In this document: positions 23,076 to 31,440 of the stretch, one piece after another
How the letters are laid out: every line of letters begins with the position of its first letter
Position numbering within the stretch: the first letter of the stretch is position 1
NCBI GenBank assembly: GCA_965240465.1
Contig: OZ251219.1
Location: 1,184,001-1,248,000 of the forward strand
Reading direction: 5' to 3'
DNA: 64,000 nt
Origin: a bacterium
GTDB taxonomy: Bacteria; SAR324; JACQKK01
The notes under the pieces: model-generated
The model's database searches: none
What the model saw: the letters and a program-made list of their open reading frames with translations, nothing else
Told to the model about the DNA's origin: nothing
Position numbers and translations under genes: made by a program

Positions 23076-23228
23076 AAGCTTTCCCTTTCTTGATGATGGA
23101 TGTTTTTAGTTGAATAAATTAAAGCACTAAAATAAATCTCGCAAATAAATCTCGCAAATAAATCTCGCAAAGAAATCCCGCAAATAAATCCCGCAGAGTA
23201 ATTCTCAGCGGGATGACTTCATATTTTT

Positions 23229-23837
23229 TTAGTAATTCCCTCCACTTCTTCCTCTTCTCTCTCCATCCTGTTCACCCTCAAGGCCGCCTTTTTCGCTTAA
23301 CACTTTGTCTAGCTCCTGTTGTTTTTCTGGAGGCAGGAGGATGTATAGATCTTTTAGGGCTAGAGTACTCTCGTTGAATTTTTGTAATCGGGATTGTAAT
23401 ACTTGGAGTTTCAGGGAGAATTTTTCAGGGGCATCAGTCGTGGTTCTCATTCGTTGACAGAGAGACTCATTTGGTTGAAATGCCAAGCTCAATTTTTCGC
23501 TAAAATTGCGAAAGGCTTTTTCTTGATCTTTGCCCTCAACTTGGAGTAGCTCTGACAATTTCCTTATTTTATTTTGACCTCTGACGGTAAACGCTACAGA
23601 ACAGGTTCCATAAGGAAATACTAAGAAATCCTTCTTGTAATTGTTACCATCAAGACGCTTATCAAAGCTGCGTTTCTTATCAAAGCTGCGTTTCTTATCA
23701 AAGCTGTGTTTCTTATCATCGCCACGATTTGCAAATGCAGAGGTCAGAAAAAAGGTGATAAATACCGCAATGATAATTTGAACATAACCTTTAGAAAAGA
23801 ATTTACGGATGCTATCCGATAAAGATGAACTAGCCAT
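23229..23837 (-). CDS. Hypothetical exported or membrane-anchored protein
   Basis: AAGGA RBS, N-terminal hydrophobic helix, in-frame 18-bp repeat (KRSFDK). Confidence 0.65.
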   Translation of the reverse strand: MASSSLSDSIRKFFSKGYVQIIIAVFITFFLTSAFANRGDDKKHSFDKKRSFDKKRSFDKRLDGNNYKKDFLVFPYGTCSVAFTVRGQNKIRKLSELLQVEGKDQEKAFRNFSEKLSLAFQPNESLCQRMRTTTDAPEKFSLKLQVLQSRLQKFNESTLALKDLYILLPPEKQQELDKVLSEKGGLEGEQDGERRGRSGGNY

Positions 23838-23900: not shown

Positions 23901-23973
23901 TGGAGACGAGGAGAATCGAACTCCCGACCTCGGCATTGCGAACGCCGTGCTCTCCCAACTGAGCTACGTCCCC
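23901..23973 (-). tRNA. tRNA-Ala(CGC), CCA not encoded
   Basis: Reverse complement GGGGACGTAGCTCAGTTGGGAGAGCACGGCGTTCGCAATGCCGAGGTCGGGAGTTCGATTCTCCTCGTCTCCA: cloverleaf, G3:U70 Ala identity pair, CGC anticodon, TTCGA T-loop. Confidence 0.96.
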
Positions 23974-24207
23974 AGTATGTCCCTAGGTCTGAATGCGAGG
24001 CTATACCAATAAATAATAAAAAGCAAGGGGGGTAGGAAATTTTATTAGGTAGTTATCAGGTGGTGGTGGGGGGGGTATTAAGTGTGGATTAAGGAGGTAA
24101 GGGTTTAGAGTACCTAATGTATCTTAAATATAGTATGGTGGATGCCTTAATTACCTCAAGACGGTTTATTGGGGAGGTGATTTAGATATTTTGTTTTGGG
24201 TATTTTT

Positions 24208-26595
24208 ATGAATATCGCCAGGGCGTGTTTTGATGGACGCGTTTCAGAGATAGATAAGCAGATTATTGAGGAGGAATTGCAGATTCTGGAGAGTATGCGT
24301 GGTTTTTTTCATTCAGCTGAGGGTCATTCTGAGCGGATGCTAGATGATGAGATGCTATGGTTGCGTGATTCCATGGCTGAGTCGAGTAAGGATGACCAAG
24401 CTCAGTTGATGGCACAGCTGATATCGGTTTCTGAGTTAGCCAAGCAGAGAGTTACTCCGATGGAGAGTGTTCAGGAAGGCACGCCTTATTTTGGGCATTT
24501 ACGCCTGAAGCAGGAGGGTAGGACTCGTGATGTGCTGATAGGCAATGCTAATTTGATGAGGAGTGAAGCCCCCATGCCGATAGTGAATTGGCATAGTTCC
24601 CCAGTGAGTAGGGTATTTTATTGTTATCAGGAGGGGGATTTATTTGAGGAGAGTTTTGGTGGTCGTTTGGTGGATGGCGAGGTACTGGTACATAGGCGGT
24701 TGGTGATTGAGGGTGGTTTGCTATTGAGGGTGGAGTGTTTGCGGGGTCGTTTTCAGTTTATGGATGGTTGTTGGCGTCGGGTGAAGGAGCATCCTCTTAG
24801 TTTGACGGGTGGAGAGTATTCAGCTCTTCGTCCGAGCAAGGACAAGCCTAGTTTGGGGATTCAAGCCAGTGTTTCAGGATTGAGTGATCGTCGGCTGGCG
24901 AATATAACGGGTCTGCTGGATGAGTCTCAGTACGAGTTAATCACCGATGCTGATAGTCAGGTGATGGTAGTGGATGGCGGGGCGGGTTCTGGCAAGACGA
25001 CGGTAGCTTTGCATCGGCTAGCATTTTTATCTCAGCACGACCCTAAGCGATTTGTTCCTAGGCGGATGATGGTAGTGGTTTTCAGTGCTGCGATGGCATC
25101 CTATATTGAGCATTTTCTGCCTGCTCTGGAGGTACACAAATGTCGGATAGAGGTATATGAGAAGCTGGTAGAAAATTTAAGAAAGCGTCATTTTCCTAAG
25201 TTGCCAGCCGAGTATCACAGTACTACTACGGGTTTGGTTTGGCGTTTTAAGCATAGTTTTGTTTGTCAGGAGTTATTGCTTCGGGCTGCAAGCGAGCGGG
25301 CTGCCGAATGGGAAGCCGACCTGAGAGAAGCACTAGGTGAAGCTCCGCAGACTGAAATCTTGCTGGAGGGCTGGCGTAGATCGTCTTTTGAGTTCATTGC
25401 TCTGAGACCGCGAATGTTTGTTCGGTGGCTGGAAAATAAGGATCCAGAGCGTCCTTCGCCGCCAGAGCTGGATTATCTTTCCAAGCAGAGATTGCAAAAA
25501 GCACTGCAGCCCTTTGAACGGCTAGTCACAAAACCAGAGCACTTCGTACTGGATATCTGGTCGGAAAGCTTTCTTAGCCATGTCAAACTAACCGAACTGC
25601 TTAACAAAATCGCCCCCGATGCCTATACTCCCCAGCAAATCAGGGAACTACACCAAAAACTGTTCTCTGGATATAGCACCTTGCAAGATTGGCTAGAATG
25701 GAAATCGGAAACACCGACCGATGATCAATTATCAGGCAGCTTTAAGCTGGGTAAGGGAACTGCTCCCATTAAACCGCAATTCTACCGAGAAGACGATACC
25801 ATATTGCTATCATTATATCAGTCGCTTGTGGGACCACTACAAGAACACCGACAACCACTTAAACTCGCACATATCACCATAGATGAAGCTCAAGACTTCA
25901 GCCCGCCAGAATTGAAAATGCTCCTAAATATAGCGGAAAAACCCTTCTCCCTCACCCTGGCTGGCGATACCGAACAACGCGTTATCCTCCATCAAGAACC
26001 CAAGGGGTGGATACCCATGCTACGCGAAATAGGACTGGAAAATCATGCCAACCTCCGACGACTAGAAGTCGGATACCGCGGCACTGAACCGATTATCAAT
26101 TTCTCCCGCAAAATACTCGGACACCTCCACCAAGGACATCCTTGGCGTGCCATTCGGGGCGGACCTCCTGTTCTATTGCTGCAGTCCAAGCAAACAGGAT
26201 TCGGACCTGCCATCTCCTTTATTGCTCCTATCCTTAAAAGCCTCCAACAACGAGAACCACATGCTACCATCGCCCTCATCGCCAGAGAAGAACAAGAAGC
26301 TCAAGATTATCATCAGGGCTTACTCAATGCCGATGTCCCCAAACTTAGGCTCGTGCTGGATTACAATTTCTCCTTCCAAGCAGGCACCGACATCACCACC
26401 ATCACCCAAGTTAAAGGACTGGAATTTGATTATGTACTCATCCTCAACGTAAATCAGCAAAACTGGCACGATGATGACCACTCCCGATTTCTCCTCCATG
26501 TCGCCGCTACCAGAGCAGCTCATCAACTCTGGCTCATCTGCTGTGGAACTCCCTCAAAACTGCTGCCTGATAACTTACACACTTATTTATTCTAA
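24208..26595 (+). CDS. HelD-like superfamily 1 helicase (RNA polymerase recycling ATPase family)
   Basis: N-terminal PYFGHL...NWHSSPVSRVFY as in HelD; Walker A GGAGSGKT, IDEAQD, KGLEFD and VAATRA motifs. Confidence 0.8.
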   Translation: MNIARACFDGRVSEIDKQIIEEELQILESMRGFFHSAEGHSERMLDDEMLWLRDSMAESSKDDQAQLMAQLISVSELAKQRVTPMESVQEGTPYFGHLRLKQEGRTRDVLIGNANLMRSEAPMPIVNWHSSPVSRVFYCYQEGDLFEESFGGRLVDGEVLVHRRLVIEGGLLLRVECLRGRFQFMDGCWRRVKEHPLSLTGGEYSALRPSKDKPSLGIQASVSGLSDRRLANITGLLDESQYELITDADSQVMVVDGGAGSGKTTVALHRLAFLSQHDPKRFVPRRMMVVVFSAAMASYIEHFLPALEVHKCRIEVYEKLVENLRKRHFPKLPAEYHSTTTGLVWRFKHSFVCQELLLRAASERAAEWEADLREALGEAPQTEILLEGWRRSSFEFIALRPRMFVRWLENKDPERPSPPELDYLSKQRLQKALQPFERLVTKPEHFVLDIWSESFLSHVKLTELLNKIAPDAYTPQQIRELHQKLFSGYSTLQDWLEWKSETPTDDQLSGSFKLGKGTAPIKPQFYREDDTILLSLYQSLVGPLQEHRQPLKLAHITIDEAQDFSPPELKMLLNIAEKPFSLTLAGDTEQRVILHQEPKGWIPMLREIGLENHANLRRLEVGYRGTEPIINFSRKILGHLHQGHPWRAIRGGPPVLLLQSKQTGFGPAISFIAPILKSLQQREPHATIALIAREEQEAQDYHQGLLNADVPKLRLVLDYNFSFQAGTDITTITQVKGLEFDYVLILNVNQQNWHDDDHSRFLLHVAATRAAHQLWLICCGTPSKLLPDNLHTYLF

Positions 26596-26650
26596 AAAAC
26601 AACCCATCCCTCACCTCACCCTCACCTCACCCCCCATCCCCCCTGAGAAC

Positions 26651-26679
26651 TTGACAAACCGATTGCCATTCCCTATACT
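26651..26679 (+). promoter_or_regulatory. Near-consensus sigma70 promoter pointing into a non-coding region
   Basis: TTGACA (26651-26656), 17-bp spacer, TATACT (26674-26679). Confidence 0.75.
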
Positions 26680-26685
26680 CGCCTT

Positions 26686-27360
26686 ATCGGGACATTTTTT
26701 ACTCAAACTGCAGTCTTGCCAGACTAGTAGGCAAGCATGGATTAAAAAATGCTCTGAATACTGAATGAAAGGGAATGGGAAGTGACCACCTGAGGTTCCG
26801 TCAATACCGAAGGGTGGATCATACATGCCTTATGATGAGCTATGATCTTAATCGGTTACTTTGCTTTAATTGCAATTTGGCATGTGCAATGACGAGGAAG
26901 ATGAGGAGGTGGACTGCACCGTAATCTCTTCTCCCCTCCGCTAATGAGCAGAGTTTCTGCCATTAAGGGAAACGCGGATTAAGCAGTCGGCAGAAACAAT
27001 GGGGAGTGAAAACTCCGAAGGTCGTGAAACGCGGTTTCTGTTTTCTGGTGAGTACCTAGTCTGGTAGATTTTGGGTGCTTATCCGATGAATATATTTCAC
27101 GCCTAAGACCGAGCTGGGACTGGCATTGTCAGTCCTGATATCATCAGTCCGCTAGCTGCCAGAGCAAGTGCGAGATTGTAAGTCTCGGTCTACTGATTAG
27201 CAGTACCGTTTGGGTATTTGCTAGCGGAGCGGAGGTTGTCATTGCACACCGTAAGCTACCGTGGGGGGCTGGGAGGAAATGCCATCATCTCCGTGGAAAG
27301 AGAATAATGGAGCAAGCAATGACATTCCCCATCTCTTTTATTCTGCTCCTTTAGTTTTTT
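26686..27360 (+). ncRNA. Candidate large structured non-coding RNA (about 600-670 nt, family unassigned)
   Basis: No credible ORF, own promoter, many nested helices found by eye (26883-26893/27238-27248, 26935-26942/27228-27235, 26953-26961/26989-26997, 27148-27156/27220-27228, GAAA tetraloop hairpin 27003-27016). Ends in a T-rich tract near 27350-27362. Boundaries approximate. Confidence 0.65.
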
Positions 27361-27370
27361 TATTACCGCC

Positions 27371-29260
27371 CTACACTTCATCAACCTGCTCAGATCCATT
27401 AGCACCCGAGACATCAGTTTTTTTATAAGTTTCAATATTTGTTTTAGGCGGTAGTTTTTCCTTAGCTGCTGGTTTATTTTTTGTTTCACCAAATATTATT
27501 TTAATTTCTCTAATAATATTTTCTTTGCTTTTAGCCAACCCTTCAGGATCAGACATTAATGTTTCTATATCTGGATAAGATGCTAATTCTATAATAAAAC
27601 TATTAACGACACCTATATCAATATTTTTACTACAACCTTGAAGATTACTAAAATGAGGATCATTTTTTATTAGGTATGTAACCTCATCTTTATCAAATAT
27701 CTGTTCTATTTTTTTCCCATGTTTCAAATGATTAACTTGAACATTACATTCAGGATCCTTTGAGATATTATCACCAGAATCATTCCCTGCGTTGTCGTCA
27801 TCTAGCAAGCAATATACTTTTTCTTTAGGACAAAAAAATGAAGATATGAAAGATTCCATACTTGTAGTACCAGTCATGGGTATTATCCCAAAATCTTCTC
27901 CACTATCAACAGTGGATAAAGCATAATAATCTGTTATTCCCTCAACAACAACTATCTTATCTTTTGTAAAAGCCTCTTCAAGTAAAGAAGGTACAGAACC
28001 TAAAGCATCTCTTATTGGCTGAAAAGCCTCATCTTTCCCTTTTTTATGTTCTAGCGAGTGAGTTAATTTTATATTACTATCATCTTTTATGTCTCTATGA
28101 CATGTCATTGTTCTTGATAGAAATGCTTTTTGTAATAAATGTTGATAGTGAGTGGTATATACTACAAAATTTTTCTTTGCTAATTCTTTTAGAATCTTAC
28201 CTAAGGCTACTTGCGAAGAAGCATGTAAATAACAACCTGGTTCATCTAATAAATAAATAACACCATTCTTATTTTTCCTATAAGAGAAGGTTTTGATAAT
28301 GAGGTTAAAGAACCATAAAAAACCTCTACTTCTTTGATCAAGATCAAAATCACTACTTTTTTTATTAATAATCTCTTTTTTATTAACAGTCTTTTTTTCC
28401 TCAACAGTCTCTACAATTCCAATATTAATCTCACCATTTTCACGAGATAATTCAATTTCTAATTTACTTTTAGACGAAACATCCTCAATCTTTTGTAAGT
28501 GATCCCATTCTTCTCTTAATTCATTGTTAAAATTAGTAGCTATGGTACGTAGTTGTTTCTTACCTATATTCATAATATTACTACCAAAACTTTCAAGTAT
28601 TCTCTTAAATGTCTGGAATGAATAATCGTTATAACCTTTATTGTTCTCTTTAGGAATTCCTATAGGACTACTTATCTTATCTACATGATAATCGTAATAA
28701 ACCATACGAGGAAGTCTTCTGATAACACTTTTATAGAAATTTATATCAAGATCATTTTCACTGAATGATTTAAATTCACCTATTTTAAATTTATATTCAG
28801 GTTTTTTATCATTTCCAATAGTTCTTGTAATTTCAATGGTATTATTTTTAGGTATCGCTTCACGGAAATTATCTACTGCATCTGTCCAGCTACTATTAAA
28901 GCTACCAATATCATTATCAACATCTTCAAAAGTATATTCATGATCTTCATCATCTGGTACTTTATAGTTTAATCTTAAAAAAACATCCTTTAAATCTTCT
29001 TTTGTGCAAGAAATCTCTGCACATATGATTGCTTCCTCCCTCTCATCATAGTTATAGCGGTTAATAATATTTGTGAGGTGTTTATACCTTACATCATCAT
29101 CATCATTTCTATAATCAAAAGCCAACATAGCTTGCAGTATGGTCGTTTTACCGCATTCATTTATGCCGATGATGGGAACAGCACCATTTTCACCTAATTT
29201 AACTTCTAAATCTTCAGATATTGCTTTGTATTTTCTAATGATGAATTTTTTGTAATGCAT
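27371..29260 (-). CDS. OLD-family ATP-dependent nuclease (ABC-type ATPase plus TOPRIM), likely defence gene
   Basis: Walker A GINECGKT, signature SRG, Walker B YLLDEPG, H-loop YTTH, TOPRIM VVVEGITD and LLDDD. Markedly AT-rich relative to flanks. Confidence 0.82.
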   Translation of the reverse strand: MHYKKFIIRKYKAISEDLEVKLGENGAVPIIGINECGKTTILQAMLAFDYRNDDDDVRYKHLTNIINRYNYDEREEAIICAEISCTKEDLKDVFLRLNYKVPDDEDHEYTFEDVDNDIGSFNSSWTDAVDNFREAIPKNNTIEITRTIGNDKKPEYKFKIGEFKSFSENDLDINFYKSVIRRLPRMVYYDYHVDKISSPIGIPKENNKGYNDYSFQTFKRILESFGSNIMNIGKKQLRTIATNFNNELREEWDHLQKIEDVSSKSKLEIELSRENGEINIGIVETVEEKKTVNKKEIINKKSSDFDLDQRSRGFLWFFNLIIKTFSYRKNKNGVIYLLDEPGCYLHASSQVALGKILKELAKKNFVVYTTHYQHLLQKAFLSRTMTCHRDIKDDSNIKLTHSLEHKKGKDEAFQPIRDALGSVPSLLEEAFTKDKIVVVEGITDYYALSTVDSGEDFGIIPMTGTTSMESFISSFFCPKEKVYCLLDDDNAGNDSGDNISKDPECNVQVNHLKHGKKIEQIFDKDEVTYLIKNDPHFSNLQGCSKNIDIGVVNSFIIELASYPDIETLMSDPEGLAKSKENIIREIKIIFGETKNKPAAKEKLPPKTNIETYKKTDVSGANGSEQVDEV

Positions 29261-29339: not shown

Positions 29340-31199
29340 TTATTTAGGTTCTTTCCAAGCCCCGTGCGTTTTAATTAGTTCTACTAGACGAGTTACAGCT
29401 TGCTCTGCGGGTACGCCTTTTTCCACGCATTGCTGCCCCTTATAGAGATTGATTTTCCCAGGGGCACCGCCTACATAACCGAAGTCGGCATCAGCCATTT
29501 CGCCTGGTCCGTTGACGATACATCCCATGATTCCTATTTTCAATCCTTTGAGATGTGCGGTTTTGGCTTTGATGCTGGCGGTGGTTAGTTGGAGGTCAAA
29601 GAGGGTTCTGCCGCAGGAGGGGCAAGAGATGTAATCGGTTTGGAAGGTTTTTAGTCTGGCGGCTTGCATGAGGGTTTGACAGAATACGGATTCGGGGCTT
29701 TGGGGATTATCGTTGGGACAGATGATTGCGTCCAAGTAGCCGTCAACGGCGAGGGCACCGACTTCCACTGCGGTTTGGATGGAGGTATCTTTGGGGGCGA
29801 GTTGAGGCAATCGGGCTGCGATGAGCCAATCTAGCCCGAGTTCTTGGAGGTAGAGGATGAGACGGCGAGCGGGTTGTAGGCAGTAGGGAGCATCCAGTAC
29901 GAGCATACCTCTGTGGGGTTGATGTTTTAGGTTTTCTAGTAGGTAGGGGAGGTTTTGCCAGTCATCGGGTGAGATGAGCAGACAGAGGGGGTAGTTGAGA
30001 GAGGCGAGTTCGGGTGCGAGGGAGAAGGGGTATAGTCGCGGTAGTGGTGGTTTGGCGAGGAGTGGGGAGGGAGATTGTAAGCTAGTGCAGTTTGCGATGT
30101 GTGCGTCAAAGACCTCTTGTTTGTGGAAGGAAGGGAGTGAGAAGTGGGTTGGCGAGGCGGATGTTTGTGAGGCGGATGTTTGTGAGGAGGATGTTTGTGA
30201 GGAGGATGTTTGTGCGAGCAATGCGACTGGGTTTTGGTAGCCGAGGGATAGTTTTCCTAGTTGTATGGAGCGAGTTTTTCGTCTTTGGAAGGTTGTTGGT
30301 GGGAGCCATGGTACATTTTTCCAGTGGGGTCCTTGTGAGACGCTGTGGACGGCTTGGATGATGGCATTAGCGACGGGGATTTCGTTTTCAGAGGGTTCGG
30401 TGAGTGATACTCGGATGGTGTCTCCGAGTCCATCGGCTAGGAGGGTTCCGATACCTAGTGCGGATTTACATCGTGCTTGGAGTCCGTCTCCGGCTTCTGT
30501 TACGCCGAGGTGTAGTGGGAAGTCCATATTTTTGGCGATCATATCTTTTGCGAGTAGTCGGTATGCGGCCACGGCGACCAAGGGATTGGAGGATTTCATT
30601 GAGACGATGACGGATTTGAAGTTATTTTTTTGGCAGATGAGGAGGTATTCCATAGCACATTGTACCATTCCCTTTGGAGTGTCTCCCCAGCGGTTGAGGA
30701 TGCGGTCAGAGAGCGAGCCGTGGTTGACTCCGATTCTCAAGGCGCGTTGGGATTGTTGTAGTTTTTCTAGGAGAGGTTGGAAGGTTATTTGGACGCGTTG
30801 GAGTTCTTCTTTATATTGGGAGTTGGTATATTCTCGCAGTTGGAAGCGTTTTTGGTCTACGAAGTTCCCTGGGTTGATACGTACTTTTTCCACCCATTGG
30901 GTGCAGTTTAGTGCTAGTGCGGGGTTGAAGTGAATATCGGCAGCTATGGGCATGGTTATGCCGTTCATTTTTTTGCGAATGAGGGGCAATGCTTTTAGGT
31001 CTCGCCTAGTGGGAATTGTAATTCGCACCAGTTGACAGCCCGCGGTTTGTAGCCGTTGCATTTCCGCGATGACTTGGGAGACATCGGTAGTGGGGCTGGT
31101 CAGCATGGATTGCACGCAGATAGGAGCGTTTCCTCCGATGACCAGATCTCCTACCTTAACCTCTCTGGATGCCCGACGACATACCGCCAAAGAACGCAT
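29340..31199 (-). CDS. ispG: (E)-4-hydroxy-3-methylbut-2-enyl-diphosphate synthase, long form
   Basis: VQSM, ADIHF, RINPGN, RIGVNHGSL, HLGVTEAG, SCPSCGR and MGCIVNGPGE motifs. The ORF extends to 31259. Confidence 0.96.
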   Translation of the reverse strand: MRSLAVCRRASREVKVGDLVIGGNAPICVQSMLTSPTTDVSQVIAEMQRLQTAGCQLVRITIPTRRDLKALPLIRKKMNGITMPIAADIHFNPALALNCTQWVEKVRINPGNFVDQKRFQLREYTNSQYKEELQRVQITFQPLLEKLQQSQRALRIGVNHGSLSDRILNRWGDTPKGMVQCAMEYLLICQKNNFKSVIVSMKSSNPLVAVAAYRLLAKDMIAKNMDFPLHLGVTEAGDGLQARCKSALGIGTLLADGLGDTIRVSLTEPSENEIPVANAIIQAVHSVSQGPHWKNVPWLPPTTFQRRKTRSIQLGKLSLGYQNPVALLAQTSSSQTSSSQTSASQTSASPTHFSLPSFHKQEVFDAHIANCTSLQSPSPLLAKPPLPRLYPFSLAPELASLNYPLCLLISPDDWQNLPYLLENLKHQPHRGMLVLDAPYCLQPARRLILYLQELGLDWLIAARLPQLAPKDTSIQTAVEVGALAVDGYLDAIICPNDNPQSPESVFCQTLMQAARLKTFQTDYISCPSCGRTLFDLQLTTASIKAKTAHLKGLKIGIMGCIVNGPGEMADADFGYVGGAPGKINLYKGQQCVEKGVPAEQAVTRLVELIKTHGAWKEPK

Positions 31200-31440
31200 A
31201 AATAATCCTAAGTGTGTCAAGTTTGTGTTGAAGAGTACTAGTTTATCTTGTAATGCCATTTTATAGCTAGCAGATGCAAGTTTATGGTTCAGCGGTTTTG
31301 CGAATCTTTTGGCGAATCTTTTTGCGAATCTTTTTGCAGATCTTTTTGTGATGTTTCAGCTGGTTTAGTATTAGATTTAGGACTACATATTGCATTACAA
31401 ACGAGCGTTAACTGCCTTTAATAGTAGAGAGTTTGAGGTT

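Follow-up and report, generated by a model that had tools for sequence, protein, structure and literature searches.

What is known about large structured RNAs in bacteria?

Bacterial RNAs that are both large and intricately folded are rare, and fresh questions for RNA biology have come with every new class of them. Among smaller regulators, there are sibling (multicopy) small regulatory RNA families, for example LhrC1-5, and there is the CsrB/RsmZ class of protein- or ribosome-titrating RNAs, which carry a string of repeated GGA hairpins. At the larger end are the orphan large ornate RNAs of bacteria OLE, ROOL and GOLLD, and such RNAs are reported to form homo-oligomers (PMC12286853, PMC5737381, PMC3413148).

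We describe here an RNA gene at positions 26651-27360 of the window (the whole 64,000-nucleotide stretch of DNA that was analysed), where a near-consensus sigma70 promoter is followed by an RNA of about 660 nt without a conserved ORF. Like OLE, ROOL and GOLLD, it is several hundred nucleotides long, has many helices and long-range pairings, is non-coding and apparently forms its own transcription unit, and its function cannot be deduced from its sequence. It differs from them in having seven paralogues, in modular short and long forms, within a single genome rather than across a broad clade; it also gives no match to their Rfam models, and neither phages nor tRNA clusters were identified in its surroundings. 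An earlier note on this DNA had likened it to that class in size and complexity without assigning a family, and on those grounds the comparison is fair, but membership of each of these families was tested and the RNA belongs to none.

The likeness to sibling small RNAs lies in the diverged paralogues with their own conserved promoters, in an invariant loop motif carried on varying stems, and in the position of some copies beside surface-protein genes; indeed, the -35 box is conserved and the P4 loop invariant across seven loci. Unlike the siblings, whose typical size it exceeds by a factor of 3 to 10, this RNA has a closed architecture of several domains rather than one to three hairpins and a terminator, and no target complementarity emerged from the regions that we looked at. 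It shares with the CsrB/RsmZ class a predicted high expression and a GGA-containing Shine-Dalgarno-like sequence in a hairpin loop, but each molecule has only one or two of these loops, with no clear GGA enrichment and no Rfam match.

The RNA belongs to a real family of large structured RNAs that had not been described before and that probably acts in trans. The earlier proposal of a large, promoter-driven, structured non-coding RNA of no known family is supported by the failure of Rfam to match it, by the location of the RNase P RNA and tmRNA elsewhere in the genome, by compensatory changes and by a promoter conserved in all copies. On balance we favour the reading that the window locus is one of seven genes for highly structured non-coding RNAs, each transcribed independently, in a family restricted to this lineage. 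The family is of course known from one genome and from sequence alone, and the function that we propose for it is a guess.

What does the locus contain?

The promoter, TTGACA-17-TATACT at 26651-26679, fits the consensus at 11 of 12 positions and deserves its previous description as near-perfect. Judging by the position of the -10 box, transcription probably starts near 26686. In the whole 1.6-Mb genome there are eight TTGACA-N17-TAYAMT sites, against 1.25 expected from composition, and five of these eight are the promoters of the five long copies of the RNA. The near-consensus promoters of these genes, in a genome where such promoters are rare, and the roughly 3.8 kb of a reduced 1.6-Mb genome that the RNA genes take up together suggest a cellular investment in this RNA.

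At the other end, the terminator scan did not list the stretch at 27344..27361 of the window copy as a terminator, other long copies have C-rich tails where this one has TGCTCC and TTTAGTTTTTTT, and no clear intrinsic terminator was seen 3' of three near-identical copies. Reading frames lying wholly within the RNA on its own strand reach 49 aa at most, while a 97-aa frame enters from upstream and reaches 26764. When all ORFs of 20 or more codons were compared with one another, none proved conserved in position or length among the paralogues, and there were only fragments tracking nucleotide-conserved blocks, in keeping with the earlier statement that there is no credible ORF. Two further statements made at that time are also right: no same-strand gene follows the window copy, the next gene downstream (27371-29260) being convergent, and the region is free of tandem repeats, which flank it (26608-26632, 23130-23195, 23658-23718 and 31296-31348) and do not occur inside. 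The features, in order along the window, are as follows.

26650..26679, + strand: promoter, with the -35 box TTGACA at 26651-26656, a 17-nt spacer and the -10 box TATACT at 26674-26679
26650-26659, + strand: extended -35 block CTTGACAAAC, invariant across all seven family members
26686..26762, + strand: 5' leader hairpin, consensus helices 1-4, with 82-100% of cells paired
26763..26781, + strand: 5' strand of the P1 closing helix, GAATGAAAGGGAATGGGAA, which pairs with 27324-27343
26782..26822, + strand: P2 hairpin with conserved loop TGAGGTTCCGTCAATACCGAAG; five of nine stem pairs are changed on both sides
26823..26885, + strand: P3 variable hairpin, ACATGCC ... GGCATGT, with two-sided changes in seven of seven stem pairs across the seven members
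26897..26931, + strand: P4 hairpin, the most conserved, with stem GAAGA(T)GA/TCTCTTC and loop GGAGGT-GGACTGC-ACCGTAA
26932..27236, + strand: domain of about 300 nt that is peculiar to the long forms; CCTCCGCT (26935-42) and AGCGGAGG (27228-35) close it
27231..27255, + strand: second copy of the loop motif, GGAGGTTGTCATTGCACACCGTAAG, whose GTCATTGC (27238-27245) pairs with GCAATGAC at 27316-27323
27316..27323, + strand: 3' joining strand GCAATGAC, partner of 27238-27245
27324..27343, + strand: 3' strand of the P1 closing helix, ATTCCCCATCTCTTTTATTC (consensus helix 5)
27344..27361, + strand: probable 3' end, placed from the sequence; TGCTCC, with TTTAGTTTTTTT after it, is able to pair with GGAGCA at 27309-27314

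How many copies are there, and where?

The earlier note implied a single locus, whereas the genome holds a family of seven paralogues: five long copies of about 660 nt (the window copy, c348, c530, c716 and c877) and two short ones of 222-253 nt (s1328 and s1572) that share the same core. The same seven loci, and nothing else in the genome, were returned by BLAST and by the covariance model (96-170 bits), and CTTGACAAAC stands upstream of every one of them. The long copies fall into three lineages that are 68-77% identical, and three of the copies are about 99% identical to each other.

Beyond this genome the searches came back empty. BLAST with the 731-nt region turned up no real match, whether among 40 relatives or among the phylum's 87 other genomes, the same-genus one included; the best of three weak matches in the phylum was coding sequence. 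The covariance model R2 gave matches in 0 of the 87 other phylum genomes, with 36 candidates per genome scored under strict filters, and none in the same-genus genome (150 candidates, E <= 10), and blastn drew a blank in the collections of phages and plasmids. The same-genus genome has a helicase orthologue (56% amino-acid identity), and directly after it comes what we read from the ORF as an ABC-type permease gene, with no RNA between them. An exact P4-motif pattern, which requires 21 fixed bases, so that diverged relatives could escape it, had two matches in genome contigs, three in metagenome contigs and two in viral contigs; by eye these are GC-rich or coding DNA, and the six scored by R2 reached 14-20 bits against 96-170 for true members. 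The seventh, L014, reads like the same sequence as L008.

Is the fold real?

The consensus fold of the long forms contains 190 pairs with 94.6% of cells paired, as against 38-45% when slid, and 19 of the 190 pairs are compensatory, compared with 6.0 +/- 2.0 in shuffles (0 of 500 shuffles reached this count). For the core shared by all seven members, whose alignment was fitted to the model, the figures are 28 pairs, 96.9% paired, and 13 of 28 compensatory against 4.6 +/- 1.5, again with 0 of 500. The long-range helix 27238-45/27316-23, tested on five distinct sequences aligned by MAFFT, has eight pairs, 39 of 40 cells paired and compensatory change in three of the eight, with pairing of 17-57% when the partner is slid.

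Folding energies, for which the controls were dinucleotide shuffles, point the same way. The + strand of the window copy folds at -235.7 kcal/mol, with z = -4.57 (0 of 20 shuffles as stable) and z = -4.42 (0 of 60), so that the energy comparison suggested earlier comes out in favour of a structured RNA; the short forms give z = -7.57 and -7.44 (0 of 150 shuffles each), and c530 and c877 give z = -2.7 and -2.8 (0 of 60 each). The - strand of the window copy has z = -3.11, and the better + strand value, the promoter orientation and the many G-U pairs all agree that the + strand is the RNA strand. Both things expected of a structured RNA, compensatory changes that keep helices and a fold stabler than shuffled sequence, are therefore seen here.

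These results weigh against the suggestion that the copies are functionless repeated intergenic DNA, with structure arising as a by-product of duplication and base composition. That only one genome carries them would suit such a suggestion, but none of the shuffles just mentioned was as stable as the real sequences, the compensatory changes exceed both shuffled and slid controls, and the promoters are conserved and near-consensus in a region that lacks tandem repeats although the genome is rich in them, all of which makes it extremely improbable. Since no homologue was found outside this genome, all of the covariation is drawn from paralogues, the sample being three long lineages and two short forms, and paralogues are open to homogenisation by gene conversion. 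The covariation check proposed earlier thus yielded compensatory changes among the paralogues and no homologue beyond this genome.

The individual pairings that had been listed fared unevenly. All eight two-segment complementarities tested are exact reverse complements at their coordinates, and five of the eight form in the minimum-free-energy fold (10/11, 8/8, 9/9, 5/5 and 7/7 pairs), in which the local hairpin near 27116-27136 is also clearly formed; TCCGCTAGC/GCTAGCGGA, GGGAATG/CATTCCC and a proposed pseudoknot are not formed there. A closing helix does exist where GGGAATG/CATTCCC had been drawn, in a slightly different register, and GTTTCTGCC/GGCAGAAAC and TGTGCAATGAC/GTCATTGCACA give way to other pairings in the consensus fold of the long forms. 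The pseudoknot TGCAGTC/GACTGCA, which would join the invariant leader block to the P4 loop, has 34 of 35 cells paired across the five long copies but no compensatory change, and is thus unproven.

How is the RNA put together?

The core, as it stands in the short forms, consists of P1, P2 with its conserved loop, a variable P3, an invariant P4 with a GGAGGU...UGCACCGUAA loop, and a long-range helix between the P4 loop and the 3' joining strand, in which the P4 loop itself is the strand equivalent to GTCATTGC. The long forms have this core plus the domain of about 300 nt and the second copy of the loop motif, and it is this second copy that forms their long-range helix. The one genome thus holds a whole comparative series, with three long lineages that have diverged and two naturally minimal forms, and in it the core can be told from the add-on domain.

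P1 (consensus helix 5) has 19 pairs with 97.6% of cells paired and two compensatory changes, and it also closes both short forms; the other long copies carry a matched insertion on its two strands, TTGG on the 5' side and CCAAG on the 3' side. The short forms have entirely different P2 stems (AGCCTGA/TCAGGCT; AAGTGCC/GGCACTT) but retain the loop, and P3 has two-sided changes in three of seven stem pairs (consensus helix 8) among the long copies alone. The P4 loop contains the Shine-Dalgarno-like GAGGAGGT at 26903-26910; TGCACCGNAATCTCTT and GAGGAGGT are found in all seven members, and in s1328 one pair of the stem has gone from G-C to A-U. In the leader hairpin there are compensatory pairs at alignment columns 21/94, 37/80, 41/79 and 53/68, and the leader block AAACTGCAG (26705-26713) is invariant in the five long copies. 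The domain of about 300 nt, missing from both short forms, holds invariant blocks and consensus helices 13-25, several of them with compensatory pairs, and the second loop motif shows a 2-nt indel between lineages.

Is this a known RNA, or the remnant of a mobile element?

None of the 4227 Rfam families matches the RNA. At gathering scores the whole window yields one tRNA only; at E <= 10 the RNA region gives four chance-level matches of 16-19 bits, and at E <= 1 the other six paralogue loci give a single noise match. OLE, ROOL, GOLLD, HEARO, raiA and the other large Rfam 15 families are ruled out by the lack of a covariance-model match. Housekeeping RNAs, raised earlier as a possible trivial explanation, are accounted for elsewhere, with the genome's RNase P RNA at C1:225900-226344 (256.8 bits) and its tmRNA at C1:1475815-1476194 (159.6 bits); the 6S RNA model has no match in the genome, in a search that recovers 6S in only 5 of 14 known genomes. 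A CsrB/RsmZ-type sponge was rejected on the closed multi-domain fold and on a GGA count of 18 over 660 nt, where shuffles give 12.7 +/- 3.0.

The mobile-element candidates were judged partly on gene content, in a genome that is 83.6% complete. A HEARO or IscB/TnpB guide RNA was set aside given the neighbours of the window copy, a UvrD-like helicase and an AAA_15+Toprim ATPase, and given that the TnpB-type domain PF07282 has no match in the genome; a group II intron or retroelement RNA was set aside on the lack of an Rfam intron match and of any match to reverse transcriptase PF00078. A broader version of the idea would make the family a relic or a non-autonomous mobile or selfish element (such as an intron lacking an ORF, the RNA of a retroelement or the guide RNA of a transposon nuclease since lost), now without cellular function. 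One can see the attraction, as the RNA is multicopy, confined to one genome and absent from the same-genus genome, its copies lie in recently expanded gene arrays, and about 170 nt past c716 the upstream terminator-promoter module recurs in truncated form. We nevertheless hold it to be quite unlikely, because no intron, HEARO or other mobile-element RNA model matches, the genome has neither PF00078 nor PF07282, terminal repeats or target duplications were not noticed in an unsystematic look, and copies only 68-77% identical still keep their promoter, invariant blocks and compensated helices, which argues for selection and not decay.

Is the RNA tied to the GLUG lipoproteins?

The same-strand gene upstream of four of the five long copies encodes a Glug-motif lipoprotein, and these copies begin 70-145 nt after its stop codon. 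The Glug family has 117 matching stretches in this genome and none in 30 relatives, and the co-occurrence of the RNA with so massive a lineage-specific expansion of surface lipoproteins suggests a testable link to the cell surface in an uncultured lineage. Downstream, c348 and c877 are followed by another lipoprotein gene within about 200 nt, and s1328 ends about 10 nt before the possible start codon of an uncharacterised ORF. From these placements, and from the C-rich tails and the lack of an obvious terminator in the near-identical copies, which make read-through possible, one could argue for a cis-acting element of the GLUG arrays, either the long leader of a downstream gene or a 3' element of an upstream one, with a role in read-through, mRNA stability or array-member choice, for example. 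We regard this as unlikely: the window copy, c530, c716 and s1572 have no same-strand gene downstream, a terminator-like hairpin and T-run separates the lipoprotein gene from the RNA's own promoter in the three near-identical copies, no lipoprotein gene lies near the window copy, and the large lipoprotein array at about 795-812 kb has no copy of the RNA.

A riboswitch or cis-regulatory leader was rejected for a related reason, since only three of the seven copies, and not that of the window, have a same-strand gene within about 250 nt downstream. The adjacency to lipoprotein genes amounts to roughly two independent events, given that three of the copies are about 99% identical and may have duplicated together with their neighbours. 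Inspection by eye of 24 lipoprotein 5' regions revealed no conserved complementarity to the RNA, and the 220 matches of 12-mer complementarity between the window copy and the genome looked unremarkable, with no formal control.

What might the RNA do?

The loop motif and the 3' end of the genome's own 16S rRNA have a predicted duplex energy of -13.2 to -16.2 kcal/mol. For 24 lipoprotein ribosome-binding sites paired with the same tail, the mean is -6.2 and the strongest value -11.0 kcal/mol. The GGU of GGAGGU can pair with ACC inside the P4 loop, so that the motif may not be free to bind.

So strong a predicted duplex could also be taken as the mark of an mRNA for a tiny peptide, in which the GGAGG of the P4 loop is followed, 4-6 nt on, by a CTG or TTG start, and then by five codons (His-Arg-Asn-Leu-Phe) that all seven copies share, the three variable bases in this block being synonymous in that frame. 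One of these 'synonymous' changes, though, is matched on the other strand of the stem; the frames diverge wholly after six codons and stop at differing lengths, leaving no conserved ORF; the start is not ATG and lies, like the Shine-Dalgarno sequence, inside a conserved hairpin; and the second copy of the motif is in a different reading frame between lineages. A peptide therefore seems very unlikely to us.

Returning to a trans-acting structured RNA, we picture a molecule that would be produced in large amounts and would fold into several domains forming one compact body, with the long-range helix as its lock. This RNA would act in trans, either as a folded RNA or as a ribonucleoprotein, rather than as a leader or an antisense RNA, with the invariant loop motif as its probable active surface. 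With low confidence, the exposed Shine-Dalgarno-like loop might bind the anti-Shine-Dalgarno tail of the 30S subunit or an RNA-binding protein, and such binding might modulate translation, possibly that of the GLUG surface-lipoprotein arrays by four of the five long copies.

Pushed further, this becomes a doubtful picture of a new ornate RNA class, invented or retained in a streamlined, probably host-associated lineage, in which invariant super-Shine-Dalgarno loops would dock the 30S subunit, or palindromic TGCA/CTGCAG loops would assemble higher-order particles, giving RNA-level control of the very numerous, lineage-specific GLUG surface lipoproteins; the short forms would be the natural minimal version of a machine that the long forms elaborate. 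With a sigma70-type promoter and a minimal form of 222 nt, the RNA should lend itself readily to expression, probing and imaging in the laboratory. By analogy with the large ornate RNAs, palindromic loops of this sort could in principle mediate RNA-RNA contacts; here the palindromic loop bases are TGCA in the P4 loop and CTGCAG in the leader.

A family of seven paralogues

The predicted structured RNA of the window is one of seven paralogues in its own genome, a single contig (C1) of 1,599,138 bases that is 83.6% complete. BLAST of the region against this genome returned four further full-length copies at 68-69% identity, together with two 46-nt matches, both of which are complete small versions of the RNA, spanning 253 and 222 nt from one strand of the closing helix to the other. 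The identical seven loci are recovered by nhmmer and by R2, our covariance model of the core common to all members, which scores them at 96-170 bits and finds no other match in the genome. On an alignment of the long copies, these fall into three lineages, namely the window copy (68-77% identity to the other long copies), c530 (68-75%) and the trio c877, c716 and c348, which are ~99% identical to each other. About 170 nt past c716, at C1:716949-716990 (~2379-2420 of sequence stretch L004), there is another terminator-like hairpin together with a degenerate promoter, CTTGATAAAT...GATCGCGAT, which resemble what is left of an additional copy since lost; this module ends at the end of a convergent gene read as uvrB (putative).

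The features of the window copy and its neighbours are as follows.

24196-26595, + strand: UvrD-like helicase, 799 aa, with a long N-terminal extension
26651-26679, + strand: near-consensus sigma70 promoter, TTGACA-17 nt-TATACT, 11 of 12 consensus positions
26686-26762: leader hairpin
26763-26781 paired with 27324-27343: P1, the closing helix
26782-26822: P2, loop conserved, stem wholly different in short forms
26823-26885: P3, a variable hairpin
26897-26931: P4, stem GAAGA(T)GA/TCTCTTC, loop GGAGGT, 7-9 variable nt, ACCGTAA
26932-27236: domain of ~300 nt, long forms only
27231-27255: second copy of the P4 loop motif
3' end of the body: 3' joining strand, then the P1 3' strand
27371-29260, - strand: AAA_15 + Toprim ATPase, 629 aa, convergent with the RNA

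The near-perfect promoter that an earlier note had read from the sequence is thus borne out, and its upstream element CTTGACAAAC is present in all seven members. Near-consensus promoters are very rare genome-wide: TTGACA-N17-TAYAMT occurs at eight sites (1.25 expected), five of which are the long copies. Three further CTTGACAAAC sites exist, one preceding an ORF read as ribosomal protein S1 (putative). In the short copy s1328, many tandem repeats of a 16-nt unit, ATTAGAACATGCAAGC, separate the conserved -35 box from the RNA body (C1:1328300-1328560, ~1150-1410 of stretch L007); in this copy, therefore, the genome's repeat expansion has invaded the leader and not the folded core. The Rfam model of 6S RNA has no match in this genome, and the same search was weak in controls.

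Is it an RNA rather than a gene or a leader?

The same note saw no credible ORF, no same-strand gene downstream and no tandem repeats, and on all three counts we agree. Between the promoter and ~27350, the longest + strand ORF lying wholly within the RNA is at most 49 aa, and a 97-aa frame entering from upstream ends at 26764; tandem repeats flank the RNA on both sides, including 26608-26632 directly before the promoter, with none inside. The next gene lies on the opposite strand, and a leader role is at odds with the family as a whole, because a same-strand gene follows closely in only three of seven copies. Across the family, ORFs of 20 codons or more have nothing in common beyond fragments coinciding with nucleotide-conserved blocks, and they vary in position and length from lineage to lineage. 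One might still imagine a translated short peptide, with the GGAGG of P4 as Shine-Dalgarno, given that a CTG or TTG stands 4-6 nt after it, followed by five identical codons in which all three variable bases are synonymous. However, such a start would be non-ATG, the frames diverge wholly beyond codon 6, one 'synonymous' change has a compensating change on the opposite side of the stem and the second loop-motif copy carries a 2-nt indel between lineages, so that we regard a peptide as very improbable.

Evidence for a conserved fold

All eight of the two-segment pairings that we tested from the earlier note are exact reverse complements at the coordinates it gives, and five form in the minimum-free-energy fold, as does, clearly, a local hairpin near 27116-27136. 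The three that do not form are TCCGCTAGC/GCTAGCGGA, GGGAATG/CATTCCC and the proposed pseudoknot TGCAGTC (26709-26715)/GACTGCA (26912-26918), which is compatible in 34 of 35 alignment cells but shows no both-side changes. The + strand (-235.7 kcal/mol) is more stable than its shuffled controls, with z = -4.57 (0/20 shuffles as stable) and z = -4.42 (0/60); the - strand has z = -3.11. Both short forms are stable (z = -7.57 and -7.44, 0/150 shuffles each), as are c530 (z = -2.73) and c877 (z = -2.76; 0/60 each).

In a MAFFT alignment of the five long copies, the RNAalifold consensus of 190 pairs is paired in 94.6% of cells, vs 38-45% when slid, and contains 19 compensatory pairs vs 6.0 +/- 2.0 in shuffles (0/500 reach it). 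The core of all seven has 28 pairs, 96.9% of cells paired (slid control 35-57%) and 13 compensatory pairs vs 4.6 +/- 1.5 (0/500), on an alignment that was fitted to the model and so leans towards structure; P3 contributes at 7/7 pairs and P2 at 5/9. P1 has a matched insertion on both strands. A long-range helix of eight pairs connects the loop motif with the 3' joining strand (MAFFT, five distinct sequences; 39/40 cells paired, slid 17-57%), with three compensatory pairs, a number reached by 28/500 shuffles. The P4 loop itself supplies the 5' strand of this helix in short forms, the second motif copy in long forms, which suggests that the long form arose when the P4 region was duplicated and the stretch separating the two copies expanded.

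Genomic neighbours

For c877, c530, c716 and c348, the same-strand upstream gene is in every case a Glug-motif lipoprotein whose stop codon precedes the -35 box by 70-145 nt, and in c877, c716 and c348 a terminator-like hairpin and T-run intervene. This lipoprotein family (lipobox, GLUG motifs, a shared C-terminus and, in several, aspartate-rich repeats) has 117 matching stretches in the genome, with arrays at C1 ~311-351, 692-716, 795-812, 873-908 and 1342-1356 kb and a further listed site at ~1566-1570 kb, but none in any of 30 relatives, among them the same-genus genome. The association is suggestive but amounts to about two independent events, since three of the copies are near-identical.

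The window copy is placed differently, between the helicase and the ATPase. Among defence-library entries, the ATPase matches AriA (PARIS, E = 4.9e-21) and Old best; as it sits in a 27-30% GC island vs ~47% around, it has the look of a defence gene that was acquired. The helicase, with solely weak, GajB-type matches, probably has a housekeeping role rather than partnering the ATPase in defence; the same-genus orthologue (56% protein identity) is directly followed by a gene reading like an ABC-type permease (putative). Within a long ORF at 29340-31259 (- strand, read as ispG-like, putative), 4.1 tandem copies of a 15-nt unit at 30154-30214 encode a Ser/Gln/Thr-rich run and are thus an in-frame coding repeat.

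What might the RNA do?

The promoter, the multi-domain fold and the invariant loop motif are conserved, and we infer an abundant, stable RNA that acts in trans. Our best guess is that the P4 loop would be its working surface, binding either 30S subunits or some RNA-binding protein, a reading we consider possible but rather doubtful; a regulatory link to the lipoprotein arrays is less likely still. A duplex of -13.2 to -16.2 kcal/mol is predicted between the invariant GAGGAGGT of the loop and the 3' end of this genome's 16S (...GGATCACCTCCTTT), compared with a mean of -6.2 and a strongest value of -11.0 kcal/mol for the ribosome-binding sites of 24 lipoprotein genes. Against the guess, the GGT in the motif can pair with an ACC of the same loop, GGA motifs show no clear enrichment (18 vs 12.7 +/- 3.0), and conserved target complementarity was looked for and not seen.

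Distribution and kinship

The family is known from one genome only. BLAST gave no real match in 40 relatives or 87 other genomes of the phylum, and R2 gave none on the same 87 (part of the candidates scored) or on the same-genus genome searched alone. Exact-pattern scans of genome, metagenome and viral collections produced seven matches, of which six scored 14-20 bits with R2 and the seventh, stretch L014, reads like another stretch, L008; phage and plasmid collections yielded none.

Nor could a known family be assigned, as the earlier note had supposed: with Rfam 15 (4227 families) at gathering scores, the sole match in the window is a tRNA (23901-23973), and at E <= 10 the RNA region has four chance-level matches of 16-19 bits. 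It is neither the RNase P RNA nor the tmRNA of the genome, both of which are located elsewhere. A mobile-element origin is disfavoured, because no intron or guide-RNA model matches and the genome, at its stated completeness, lacks both a reverse transcriptase and a TnpB-type domain. By our rating the family is new but its descriptive kind is known, namely that of the orphan ornate RNAs OLE, ROOL and GOLLD (PMC12286853, PMC5737381, PMC3413148). The proposed likeness stands for size and complexity but not for membership, as the family belongs to none of the three. It differs from them in being known from one genome only, in having seven paralogues with natural minimal and extended forms, and in that every member carries a strong promoter of its own, a trait reminiscent of sibling small RNAs, though here at a much larger scale.
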